Below, one piece after another: positions 35,675 to 37,791 of a stretch of 37,791 bases of DNA. This stretch comes from an uncultured archaeon (lineage in GTDB: Archaea; Thermoplasmatota; Poseidoniia; MGIII; CAYLMJ01): contig CAYSUX010000001.1 in assembly GCA_964434315.1 (NCBI GenBank), positions 1-37,791 of the forward strand, given 5' to 3'. Under the pieces are notes generated by a model. That model did no database searches. It was not told where the DNA came from and worked only from the letters and a program-made list of their open reading frames with translations. Position 1 is the first letter of the stretch, and the number at the start of each line of letters is the position of its first letter. Position numbers and translations under genes: made by a program.

Positions 35675-35797
35675 AAGAGGACAGTGAAGCTGGCCGTGGC
35701 CGCACTCCCCCTTGGGCCGCAGGATAAAGGCCAGGGTGGCCGAGGCCCCCGGCTCTAGCAGGGCCAGGCTCTCGGTGGTGTCGGCGGCCTCGAAATA

Positions 35798-36334
35798 TCA
35801 TTTTGAAATACACTCTTTTCTTTTTCTTATAATAATTTTGGTGATGTCAATAATAAATCCACTAAAGAAAACAATTACGATCATTACTATTACTAATAGA
35901 TTATAACTGTGTGGTATTAAAGTCCGATGATAGTTTAGCGTCCTAATCGCGATTAATATGATAACTGCCAATAAATTCATTATTGGACCTATTATACCAT
36001 ATGTTTTATATTTAAAAATTAAACAATTTTTCAAAACTACAATAATCGGCATATATATTATTATTAATGAAATGAATATTAATATAATCTTAACTAAATA
36101 ATTATTTTGTTGAGCGGCAAAAATATTTAAAAATACTGCAAAAATCGGTAATACAAGTATTAATATGAAAGAATATATTGGATAGTTCTCCTGAACATTT
36201 TTTTTAATAAATAATTTTGAAAGATTAATTAATCCTTTTTCAAAACATTTAAGTTCGGGATCATTAGGATCATTAAAATATAACCCGAAGTAACTTGATA
36301 TTGTTTTAGGACTATTACGGTTTACTTGAGTCAT
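35798..36334 (-). CDS. Small, very AT-rich 4-TM membrane protein; candidate immunity protein
   Basis: I start at the ATG at 36334 (MTQVNRN...), 2 nt after the TAA of the upstream ORF. There are four hydrophobic helices: IYSFILILVLPIFAVFLNIFA, IILIFISLIIIYMPIIVVL, IIGPIMNLLAVIILIAI and LLVIVMIVIVFFSGFII. The line 36001-36060 has only 9 G+C out of 60. The stop at 35798-35800 coincides with the AT-to-GC boundary. Confidence 0.6.
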   Translation of the reverse strand: MTQVNRNSPKTISSYFGLYFNDPNDPELKCFEKGLINLSKLFIKKNVQENYPIYSFILILVLPIFAVFLNIFAAQQNNYLVKIILIFISLIIIYMPIIVVLKNCLIFKYKTYGIIGPIMNLLAVIILIAIRTLNYHRTLIPHSYNLLVIVMIVIVFFSGFIIDITKIIIRKRKECISK

Positions 36335-36336
36335 TG

Positions 36337-37791
36337 TTACGTGTATAATATAATACATTCCTCAATTAAGCGGGCTGATGAAATACTTGTAAAAACCAAA
36401 CCAAGAAAGAGGAAACCAGTTTCATAGCCTGTTAATAGTTCCCAACCTTTGTTAATAATGAATTTACCTGCAACCCAGACCCCACTCCCTAATGCAACTG
36501 CACTAAGCCAAATACTCTTCCTCAAAAACGCTTTACGTTCATCTGGATCTTCAGTTCCATCTAAATTTGTTATATAATTCATAGTGTAAAAGAAATTGAA
36601 TGTTGCAAATAATCCCCCGATTAATAATGCTGGTACGAGTGTCATTCTAAATTCCTGTGCCCCTTCTTTATCTGGTTTCCAACCCTTTTTCTCACTTCCG
36701 TAATCTAATAAAAGTTTAACTCCACCAGCCTTAGCAATAGCACTCCCGAATCGAGCTACCATTAAACCAAAACTTGCTGAGAATATTTTTGCAGGATCAT
36801 CATAAAGATTATCGCTTAGCCAATCATTCATAATATCCGAAGTAGTACTTGACAAACTAGCAGCAATAAGAAAATTATTTAAGCTATTCCCTATAGGGAA
36901 TTCTGAAAAATCATCACTAGAAACAGAAGCCGTGCCTACATTTAGAAGACTAAATAAACTATTGTCTTTACCCATAATTCTATCTAAAACAAAATATAGT
37001 CCTTGTTTTGTAATATCACCAATTAGGCTACCAATTGCTGGAAAGCTACTTCCTAAAATGCTTATCATTTGCATTACCAAGGCACCTAAATCAAACAACA
37101 TTGTAAATGGTTCAATTAACTGTATTATATTCATTATTGCCGAAACAACAGGCTTTACACTATTTAATAAGCCACCAAAAATATTAAAAATTCCTAATCC
37201 AGCAGAAATCGTATCATCTACATCACTATGAGAGCTTCTACCACTATCATCGAATTCATTTACTTTGTTGATGAACGTTAACCATAATGAATATAGAGTA
37301 TCAACTACACTTTCAACCAAATTAATTGCGGGTTGAAATATATTATCAATTAACCACTGCACCTGCTCCTTGATCCAATCTACAATCGCGTTGATAACCG
37401 ACATCACGGCATCCACAACCGCCTCCCAAGTATCCGCGGCGGTATCCAAAACCCAATTCAATACTGCCACTGCCGCTCCATCCATATGCCCTTGGAACTC
37501 GCGGTAGTTCTCGTTGATGTCCCAGGCGCGTACCTCGACGTCAAAGCCCAGCGTCGAACCAAACAGGGCGTCCGCAAGGTCGAGGCTGATGCGGGCCTTG
37601 TACTCGCCCGAGGCGGTCCTGGTGGCCACTACCCAGTCGCTGCGGGAGGGGCTTTCCATCCTGATCTGGACCTCGCCCACGCCCGCCGCGCCCTCGACGG
37701 CCCCGGGCTCCGCCCAGGCCACGTCGTAGAGGGCCGGAGCCGAGCCGGGTGGGCCCTCAAGGCGGAAGCTGTAGCGGAGGCGCGGCTGCTG
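36337..37791 (-). CDS. 3' part of a large surface or secreted protein (5' end outside the window) with an AT-rich hydrophobic, glycine-zipper-rich C-terminal domain; candidate polymorphic-toxin C-terminal module
   Basis: The frame is open from the window edge (QQPRLRYSFRLEGPPGSAPALYD-VAWAEPG...), and the track start at 37722 is only a GTG. A GC-rich beta-rich N-terminal part (EVQIRMESPSRSDWVVATRTASGEYKARISL) comes first. Amphipathic helices follow. The AT-rich part has GxxxG-rich hydrophobic stretches (GLGIFNIFGGLLNS, ILGSSFPAIGSLIG, FGLMVARFGSAIAKAGG) and three terminal TM-like helices. Confidence 0.6.
   Translation of the reverse strand, partial: QQPRLRYSFRLEGPPGSAPALYDVAWAEPGAVEGAAGVGEVQIRMESPSRSDWVVATRTASGEYKARISLDLADALFGSTLGFDVEVRAWDINENYREFQGHMDGAAVAVLNWVLDTAADTWEAVVDAVMSVINAIVDWIKEQVQWLIDNIFQPAINLVESVVDTLYSLWLTFINKVNEFDDSGRSSHSDVDDTISAGLGIFNIFGGLLNSVKPVVSAIMNIIQLIEPFTMLFDLGALVMQMISILGSSFPAIGSLIGDITKQGLYFVLDRIMGKDNSLFSLLNVGTASVSSDDFSEFPIGNSLNNFLIAASLSSTTSDIMNDWLSDNLYDDPAKIFSASFGLMVARFGSAIAKAGGVKLLLDYGSEKKGWKPDKEGAQEFRMTLVPALLIGGLFATFNFFYTMNYITNLDGTEDPDERKAFLRKSIWLSAVALGSGVWVAGKFIINKGWELLTGYETGFLFLGLVFTSISSARLIEECIILYT

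Follow-up and report, generated by a model that had tools for sequence, protein, structure and literature searches.

An in-frame GC-to-AT switch at a conserved motif marks a probable exchangeable C-terminal cassette in an undescribed archaeal protein family

Introduction

Why does a single open reading frame (ORF) change its base composition abruptly while keeping its frame, and what is the AT-rich DNA that begins there? This question is raised by the stretch analyzed here (the window), a complete contig of 37,791 nt (CAYSUX010000001.1 of assembly GCA_964434315.1) that represents core chromosome of an uncultured archaeon of the Poseidoniia (MGIII) with ~58% GC. Close to its right end, ORF 36337..37791 on the minus strand passes from a GC-rich part, the head, into an AT-rich part, the tail, and the AT-richness carries on through a 2-nt intergenic gap and the adjoining small gene 35798..36334, the partner gene. 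A sequence-only reading had described this block as the footprint of a recombined cassette. The block is probably an exchangeable C-terminal cassette, composed of the tail and the coupled partner gene, that belongs to the last module of a tandem array in an undescribed archaeal family of surface-type proteins.

Polymorphic effector/immunity loci are a main currency of bacterial cell–cell conflict. Polymorphic toxin systems (PTSs) recombine with standalone cassettes and are reported to be rare in archaea (Zhang et al. 2012, PMC3482391). The sole archaeal-specific analogue, VARTIG, is reported from the Thermococcales, with no counterpart found outside this group (Makarova et al. 2021, PMC8416519). 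The family described here is a new one with the same cassette logic, and its members can be tested for a role in contact-dependent antagonism or self-recognition among archaea. The locus is also a clean natural experiment on base composition: the GC content at third codon positions (GC3) drops from 0.8 to 0.2 in one frame at one conserved motif, and this recurs across hosts. It could, thus, help to tell horizontal import from a recombination-dependent maintenance of GC resembling GC-biased gene conversion.

Composition and limits of the AT-rich block

Averaged over a sliding 200 nt, the GC content is 0.65–0.70 up to ~35,790, 0.19–0.40 from there to ~37,350, and 0.59–0.68 thereafter. Maximum-likelihood change-points lie at 35,793, where GC goes from 0.68 to 0.23, and at 37,354, where it goes from 0.30 to 0.64. 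The 25 consecutive 60-nt segments of the block hold a mean of 18.2 G+C, compared with 34.9 ± 4.9 in the 594 segments outside, of which four are as low as the mean of the block. Bins of 500 nt with less than 0.45 GC occur in the block only. Hence, the block is real, as first described, and the hand counts given for it (43, 9, 18, and 34 G+C per 60 nt) were exact on recount. The only other places where a 200-nt average falls below 0.40 are two short patches (~9,781–10,200 and ~18,821–19,080), each at or beside the ends of adjoining long ORFs.

The reading frame of the large ORF is continuous across the right switch, as had been claimed. Up to the switch, GC3 is 0.80 (130 codons), and beyond it 0.23 (334 codons); four housekeeping genes of the window have a GC3 of 0.76, and the partner gene one of 0.19. 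An open frame of 338 codons would arise by chance in DNA of such composition with a probability of ~5e-13, and one of 179 codons with ~4e-8. On the left side, where the switch had been placed hard by the TGA of the partner gene, the GC-rich state returns 8 nt past this stop codon. The block, thus, consists of 338 codons plus stop and one whole gene for a 178-aa protein, in agreement with the roughly 340 codons and one complete downstream gene of the earlier description. The term "big protein" used in that description has to be dropped, however. The ATG of the large ORF lies ~129 nt past the window end, as seen in contig L007, and the full-length protein measures only 527–540 aa in contigs that run past this end; the C terminus of a giant gene is not present here.

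The first and second codon positions are also poorer in GC in the tail (GC1/GC2 of 0.41/0.38) than in the head (0.65/0.45), as would be the case if the AT-richness were a by-product of the amino acids of a hydrophobic membrane domain. The largest shift is nevertheless found at third positions, and it extends across the partner gene as well as the gap between the two genes. It is therefore a phenomenon of synonymous sites and no amino-acid effect, and this explanation is rejected as having next to no probability.

Further contigs across the junctions

A chimeric assembly, in which AT-rich foreign DNA was joined to a GC-rich archaeal contig, would produce sharp junctions as well. Assemblers do break at this locus, since the window ends in a repeated head and two contigs of GTDB genomes, L004 and L005, start at the same head position. 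Four other contigs argue against a chimera. L007 (JGI 3300009008) matches the window over 6,851 nt at 100% identity, from an ORF for an acidic 556-aa protein upstream of nadA across nadA and both junctions; L001 and L008 (ENA, two samples) cross both junctions at 99.96% identity over ~2.5 kb; and L009 (Logan, SRR8062320) crosses the left one at 100% identity. In addition, the right junction lies in frame within a conserved family in which nine genes switch at the homologous point. Because the junctions are crossed at 99.9–100% identity in contigs from JGI, ENA, and Logan, assembly chimerism, against which the sequence-only reading had cautioned, is excluded for practical purposes.

L004 and L005 are the two modules of another contig, L002, assembled apart. 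Both begin at the equivalent of window position 37,560, and this shared start points to an assembly break induced by the repeat. Repeated heads of this kind break metagenome assemblies and mislead binning. L005 (CAZCVP010000056.1; 38.7 kb, 70–75% GC) is labeled "uncultured Enterobacterales bacterium," which looks wrong as to taxon or bin; its positions 1–10699 open with an archaeal-type module identical to module 2 of L002 and encode FG-GAP and Cys-rich proteins.

Head and junction motif

The position of the right switch is defined by a motif. The change-point 37,354 coincides with the final base of the codons for WIKEQVQW, which corresponds to the family consensus W[IV].E.V.[WF]. Calculated per 10 codons, the nucleotide identity between paralogues is 0.93–0.97 over the 20 codons that end at the motif and falls to 0.3–0.5 within the 20–30 codons that follow. 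Compared with the two modules of L002, the head of the window is 88% and 80% identical at the nucleotide level, with the matches ending at window positions 37,375 and 37,340, and the closest paralogues in general share 80–90% in their heads and cannot be aligned beyond the junction. The protein P0002 behaves in the same way: it is near-identical to the product of the window ORF over the first ~150 residues, that is, the head, and diverges abruptly after ...VMSVINAIV.W..E.V.[WF]. Five motif-carrying genes switch their GC3 within 20 codons of the motif and four more do so at the homologous position, which amounts to nine family genes in six genomic contexts.

At least 60 head residues are invariant across four paralogues (alignment A1). 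The heads show a dS of 0.46–0.8 and a dN/dS of ~0.3, with some blocks being 100% identical, and the tails are saturated. The head is predicted by AlphaFold2 to adopt an immunoglobulin (Ig)-like β-sandwich (predicted local distance difference test [pLDDT] 64–89) that is followed by the start of a long junction helix. A Foldseek search with the head returned weak matches only, to Ig domains of adhesin extenders, and nothing below E = 0.1 against the PDB. No Pfam family matches the product of the large ORF.

Tail

The tail is predicted to be all-helical, with hydrophobic C-terminal helices, as judged from structure prediction and hydropathy; this is compatible with a membrane-acting domain. The tails share the motifs EPF, NSLFSLLGL, and P..A..NF (75 profile matches) and are recovered by one profile. 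Hence, they form one homologous family. In the 39 family members scanned, the tail module is not covered by Pfam. The sequence-only reading would have been weakened if all relatives carried the same AT-rich tail. They do carry tails of similar composition, and to this extent the objection holds, but the tails differ in sequence, and to this extent it fails. Similar AT-rich composition with differing sequence makes the AT-richness a lasting trait of this class of cassettes and no proof of one recent import.

Across samples, the tail is 99.9–100% identical. It is thus not hypermutated, and a mechanism like that of diversity-generating retroelements (DGRs) is excluded.

In a profile search of PDB sequences, a tape-measure protein and a designed bundle of helices were the only matches, both with borderline E-values. 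The likeness to tape-measure proteins is weak and recurrent; it covers the junction helices and the first half of the tail (residues ~150–320 of the L007 protein; window ~37,000–37,470) and may be compositional, given the W-rich amphipathic helices. The matches reach E = 2e-6 in PHROGs and E = 6e-4 in the PDB (6v8i, gp57). The tail has no match in the phage and plasmid collections. No relatives were found in the JGI metagenome scan or the first scan of IMG/VR, and a further IMG/VR scan with alignment A6 yielded a single match, an ordinary prophage tape-measure protein and no family member.

Partner gene

The ATG of the partner gene lies 2 nt past the stop codon of the large ORF, an operon-like coupling. 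Its 178-aa product has four strong transmembrane (TM) segments (Kyte–Doolittle hydropathy 2.4–3.2) and no match in scans of Pfam, PADLOC, and PHROG. Likewise, no informative family emerged from Pfam, NCBIfam, PADLOC, and PHROGs for the products of the large ORF and the partner gene or for the partners of the other modules. The partner genes of different modules are not homologous to each other, so that each tail is followed by a small gene of its own; their products are mostly multi-TM proteins, with that of L002 module 2 being soluble. The comparison with relatives, thus, gives the pattern that a recombined cassette should leave: the GC-rich 5' part is kept, and the 3' part and the next gene differ.

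Arrays, mosaics, and expression of the modules

In several contigs, units composed of a head, a tail, and a small gene occur in tandem. L002 holds two such modules with GC alternating between 0.6–0.78 and 0.2–0.38. In L013, a gene for a 2,236-aa protein is followed by a 202-aa gene, a 5'-truncated copy of 879 aa, and another small gene; the truncated copy is 84% identical to the full-length gene at the nucleotide level along 1.2 kb, up to the point where GC drops. The order in L012 is big–small–small–big–small–big, with 90% identity over 975 nt up to the GC drop. Positions 800–5216 of L012, beside the array, hold a run of toxin–antitoxin pairs of the PIN/RHH/UPF0175 type, which fits a variable defense/conflict island.

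The modules of L001, L007, and L002 form a mosaic. Directly upstream of the module, L001 has another AT-rich block and L007 a GC-rich spacer. In this upstream spacer, L007 agrees with module 2 of L002 (L002-m2; 97–100%); in the leader, L001 agrees with L002-m2 (97–100%); and past a common block of ~80 nt, L001 agrees with L007, with L002-m2 being 82–93% identical and then 35–53% identical beyond the junction. This three-way mosaic means that crossovers in conserved blocks reshuffle the modules. Recombination in conserved blocks, thus, exchanges the sequence upstream of the tail cassettes, and the claim of a recombined cassette gains support from the conserved heads, the unalignable tails, the unrelated downstream genes, and this mosaic. 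The window end itself lies in the ~80-nt block (~37,692–37,791), which is identical in L001, L007, and L002-m2 and is an assembly fork and a recombination hotspot.

Each module contains an invariant element, TCGCCAATGTTT(A/T)TATCAAACGGG (L001 311–357, L007 440–492, and L002 3028–3073; just past the window end), which includes a TATA-like box, TTTATATC, ~26 nt upstream of the ATG of the module. The leader is rich in P, A, R, and C, and its two indels in the window allele (12 and 27 nt) both preserve the frame. The box and the frame-preserving indels suggest leaderless transcripts and short genes that are expressed independently and not silent.

Wider family

When 1.84 billion representatives were searched exhaustively with a profile, 75 proteins were found, 25 of them at E ≤ 1e-10. 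Word-indexed searches gave fewer: three relatives, all from one study, in 5.8 billion clusters, and five proteins with a 26-sequence profile. The family is undescribed and without Pfam coverage, and at least two lineages of uncultured archaea carry it. Its members reach 6,611 aa, and in many of the large ones the match lies near the C terminus. The relatives inspected have signal-like hydrophobic N termini and, in several cases, TSP3 and PKD repeats; giant members with a signal peptide include the 2,236-aa protein of L013 and a 2,352-aa protein of L010. The C-terminal order in the relatives is a β-sandwich, a helix with W..E.V.W..N...P, the motifs ELAKWDVVDGDES, LSF.G.Q..AE, IEPF, ENSLFSLLGL, and P.F.ALKNF, and then several TM helices.

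L010 is an archaeal scaffold (Cgi121, SUF) of ~68–70% GC whose NadA is 57% identical to that of the window. In its 2,352-aa gene, GC3 falls from 0.61 to 0.19 right after WVKEQVQW, and the AT-richness goes on through the downstream genes. The whole island at 10001–20000 of L010, with the giant gene and the genes for a TM protein of 292 aa and a WD40/PKD protein, is AT-shifted against the ~0.68 GC of the scaffold. It is tiered, with a GC of 0.44–0.50 in the body, 0.50–0.58 before the junction, and 0.31–0.47 in the tail and downstream, which suggests a mosaic from several donors. In both archaeal lineages the family locus is found near nadA, adjoining it in the window and 6.6 kb off in L010 (nadA 2242–3399); this may be a conserved chromosomal position.

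Across the nine genes, GC3 is 0.18–0.27 in the tail, 0.19–0.38 in the partner, and 0.38–0.80 before the junction, with host values of ~0.4–0.87, of which those for L012 and L013 are estimated from few, possibly mobile, genes.

Origin of the AT-richness

The gene plan common to the family is a host-like GC-rich part that ends in the W[IV].E.V.[WF] helix and then an AT-rich tail, helical and hydrophobic, that diverges fast. Full-length members are giants with a signal peptide and TSP3/PKD/Ig repeats; behind them come 5'-truncated copies that carry only the last part of the body, another tail, and another small gene. Homologous recombination or gene conversion in the spacer, leader, and head blocks swaps what precedes a given tail cassette, and the tail together with its partner would be the unit of exchange. 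The cassettes may stay AT-rich as a separate pool, either because they are exchanged horizontally or because they are never homogenized with resident copies.

The uniform composition of the tails across the family weighs against a single recent import and fits a common pool or AT decay in place. According to the latter explanation, no foreign donor is needed: repeated heads and spacers are kept GC-rich by frequent (GC-biased) gene conversion with resident copies, and the unique tail and partner, for which the population offers no partner in recombination, decay to the AT mutational equilibrium as they diversify. The GC3 of tails and partners is indeed nearly constant (0.18–0.38) despite the wide range among the hosts. 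The parts before the junction are always GC-richer, apparently above background even in the low-GC contigs L012 and L013, whose host values are subject to the limit just given. The heads contain 100% identical blocks that resemble gene conversion, the saturated tails indicate time enough to decay, and no phage or plasmid relative and no family member on a viral contig was found. On the other hand, the 3' boundary in the window is razor-sharp although the adjoining spacer is only patchily repeated, the rest of the 37.8 kb comes nowhere near such a composition, and the AT shift of the whole giant gene of L010 against its host is easier to understand as an import. Decay in place is, thus, a serious but rather unlikely explanation, and the exchanged cassette is preferred.

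Atypical composition and sharp boundaries would also be expected of an inserted mobile element (a provirus, a plasmid fragment, or an integron-type cassette) that is unrelated to the host gene. Against this, neither integrase nor transposase genes are among the annotated genes of the window, Rfam families and tRNAs are absent from it, and no conserved att-like or structured site is seen at the 3' boundaries of the loci compared, which lie 85–300 nt past the stop codon at the other loci. Phage and plasmid relatives are missing in the collections searched, with IMG/VR yielding only the tape-measure protein mentioned above, and at its 5' boundary the block is fused in frame at a motif that the family conserves. 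The insertion of a prophage, plasmid, or integron is therefore rejected, with a small residual probability.

Function of the cassette

For the tail, the role of a membrane-inserting effector is proposed, with the mostly multi-TM, co-varying partner as its cognate protection or partner protein. The model for this pairing is the membrane-acting toxins of the CDI (contact-dependent inhibition), Rhs, and colicin type with their TM immunity proteins. The pair may then serve contact-dependent competition in the manner of PTSs, a reading held with moderate to low confidence. The recurrent tape-measure-like helices lend weak support to a membrane effector.

Several observations weigh against an exchangeable effector cassette. 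No toxin domain was matched in the tail in Pfam, PADLOC, or PDB, and neither the tail nor the partner contains a detectable known toxin, immunity, or other domain. The AlphaFold2 models, run with 3-sequence and 26-sequence alignments, are poor (pLDDT 41 and 56). The tails belong to one helical/TM family and are mutually homologous, without the replacement by unrelated toxin folds that is found in classical PTSs. By hydropathy, no signal peptide is present in the window protein or the other short members, which leaves delivery and topology unexplained, and the C-terminal TM helices could be the plain membrane anchor of a surface protein. Moreover, the uniform tail composition across hosts fits AT decay in place as well, and no near-identical tail was found across lineages in the searches run; hence, the horizontal exchange of cassettes is putative.

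The locus might be no weapon at all. The tail would then anchor a surface adhesin in the membrane or form its stalk, with the small TM protein as its membrane partner, and variation of the pair would serve self/non-self recognition (compare Proteus IdsD/IdsE and the "MHC-like" hypothesis for VARTIG) or escape from viruses that use it as a receptor. An anchored topology is indicated by the N-terminal signal-like segment and the C-terminal TM helices of the full-length relatives, the single tail family and the absence of a detected toxin domain fit in, and recognition is among the hypotheses put forward for VARTIG (PMC8416519). However, membrane-proximal anchors of adhesins are rarely hypervariable, the partner of L002 module 2 is soluble, and truncated copies with co-varying downstream genes are the hallmark of effector/immunity loci (PMC3482391). 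An anchor in the service of recognition is, thus, possible, although the odds are against it.

Extending the proposal of an exchanged effector further, the family may represent an archaea-specific system of contact-dependent competition or kin recognition, in which giant TSP3/Ig surface proteins carry swappable membrane-inserting tails with paired membrane partners, drawn from a trans-lineage AT-rich pool (GC3 ~0.2) shared by hosts of ~40–70% GC. This is a tentative idea and rather doubtful in its full form. If true, a trans-lineage pool would mean either continual traffic of cassettes between lineages or a locus-specific regime of recombination and mutation that decouples composition within one gene.

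Comparison with known systems

Escherichia coli Rhs elements have a core rich in GC and C-terminal tips rich in AT, with a further ORF downstream. In contact-dependent inhibition (CDI), the C-terminal region of CdiA (CdiA-CT) is demarcated by a motif and directly followed by the immunity gene, orphan CT/immunity pairs keep upstream homology, and some CTs act as ionophores in the membrane and are paired with multi-TM immunity proteins. The family described here resembles CDI in the motif-bounded variable C terminus, the small gene immediately after it, and the truncated pairs that retain upstream homology. It differs in lacking the VENN motif, FHA repeats (Pfam scans), and a CdiB partner, and in belonging to the single-membrane envelope of archaea; no transporter gene is present in the window.

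The likeness to PTSs is extensive. A conserved part and a hypervariable C-terminal region are separated by a demarcating motif, W[IV].E.V.[WF], at which identity drops in one step; the gene immediately downstream is small, variable, and co-varying, which makes it a candidate immunity gene; tandem truncated cassettes with other C termini stand beside a full-length gene (L013, L012, and L002); recombination takes place in the conserved part; and, as in Rhs elements, an AT-rich cassette sits behind a GC-rich part. In contrast to PTSs, none of the known trafficking or toxin domains is detected, with RHS/YD, FHA, PAAR, and WXG among those missing. The window protein lacks both a signal peptide and known repeats, and the giant relatives have signal-like N termini and, in several cases, TSP3/PKD repeats, with none showing RHS or FHA. 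The host is archaeal, and the short copies seem to have a promoter and a start codon of their own. With regard to Rhs in particular, the 39 family members scanned contain no RHS-repeat match in Pfam, and the junction motif is unlike the end of the YD/RHS core, PxxxxDPxGL.

In VARTIG of the Thermococcales, a large protein has a hypervariable Ig region at its C terminus, and shorter downstream genes align to this region; recombination was inferred for VARTIG, its organization is PTS-like, and its function is unknown (PMC8416519). It shares with the family described here the archaeal locus, a large Ig-domain surface protein, and the PTS-like layout. The variable units are different, however: in VARTIG, a distal Ig domain and a C-terminal sorting signal vary, whereas here the Ig-like part is conserved and a helical/TM tail of ~340 aa varies together with its partner. 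VARTIG is not known for a compositional step such as that seen here, and no homology to it was detected in the searches run, in which the arCOG07710 sequences themselves were not compared.

The resemblance to phage tape-measure proteins is confined to long W-rich amphipathic helices (W...I/V..), which are weakly but recurrently similar to the junction and the first tail half. The scores are borderline and compositionally biased, phage context and other tail genes are absent, and no membership is claimed. As regards integrons, the window contains no IntI integrase, the 3' boundaries have no conserved structured site, and the 5' boundary is a fusion in frame. As regards DGRs, no reverse transcriptase is found among the annotated ORFs, the tail has no template-like repeat, and it is 99.96–100% identical across samples. 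Since the variable unit is a different one and no defining domain of PTSs, Rhs, CDI, integrons, or DGRs is present, the locus works like a PTS or VARTIG and is a member of none of these systems.

Features of the locus and its neighborhood

The coordinates of the features are collected in Table 1.

Table 1. Features of the cassette and its surroundings in the window, in order of position
Feature	Position	Strand	Properties
nadA (quinolinate synthase)	33554..34639	+	Pfam NadA, E = 4e-95; first flanking housekeeping gene, converges on the cassette
Inter-module spacer, cassette to nadA	34640..35797	.	GC 0.55–0.73; no consistent coding frame
Spacer segment homologous (83%) to L001 176–271	34724..34822	-	L001 counterpart just upstream of the module leader
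3' boundary of the probable cassette	35790..35797	.	65–70% GC from 8 nt after TGA; change-point 35,793
Partner gene, 178-aa protein	35798..36334	-	GC 0.23, GC3 0.19; same gene in 4 other contigs
AT-rich variable tail, 338 codons plus stop	36337..37353	-	GC 0.34, GC3 0.23; divergent member of an uncharacterized C-terminal module family
Conserved GC-rich head of the large ORF	37354..37791	-	GC3 0.80, host-like; truncated at the end of the contig
Junction motif WIKEQVQW (family consensus W[IV].E.V.[WF])	37354..37377	-	5' boundary of the cassette; end of DNA homology between paralogues

The window encodes archaeal RqcH, CDP-archaeol synthase, aIF2-alpha, PAC2, TIM, MutL, and NadA. Between an acyl-CoA dehydrogenase gene and nadA, positions 31812–33482 (+) encode the extremely acidic 556-aa protein mentioned above, which has a hydrophobic segment near its N terminus and no family assignment. 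The linkage of nadA, spacer, and cassette recurs in the JGI contig L006/L007.

A Pfam scan of the spacer gave no match, and the first ~100 codons past the cassette, considered as a gene remnant, are not supported by Pfam. The spacer contains direct repeats with units of 63 nt (34916–34978, 35070–35132, and 35498–35560) and of 53 nt (34875–34927 and 35330–35382), which fold no better than shuffled sequences and show no significant RNA fold. A 31-nt core, CAGACACGCCCTGGCGGGCGNTCTCGCGGCC, occurs nowhere else in the window. A tblastx comparison of the spacer with all loci gave compositional noise, save for one 52-nt patch. Short patches of the spacer recur in the spacers of L002, L005, and L007, and since the segment at 34724..34822 matches the spacer upstream of the module in L001, the module is flanked by similar spacer sequence on either side.

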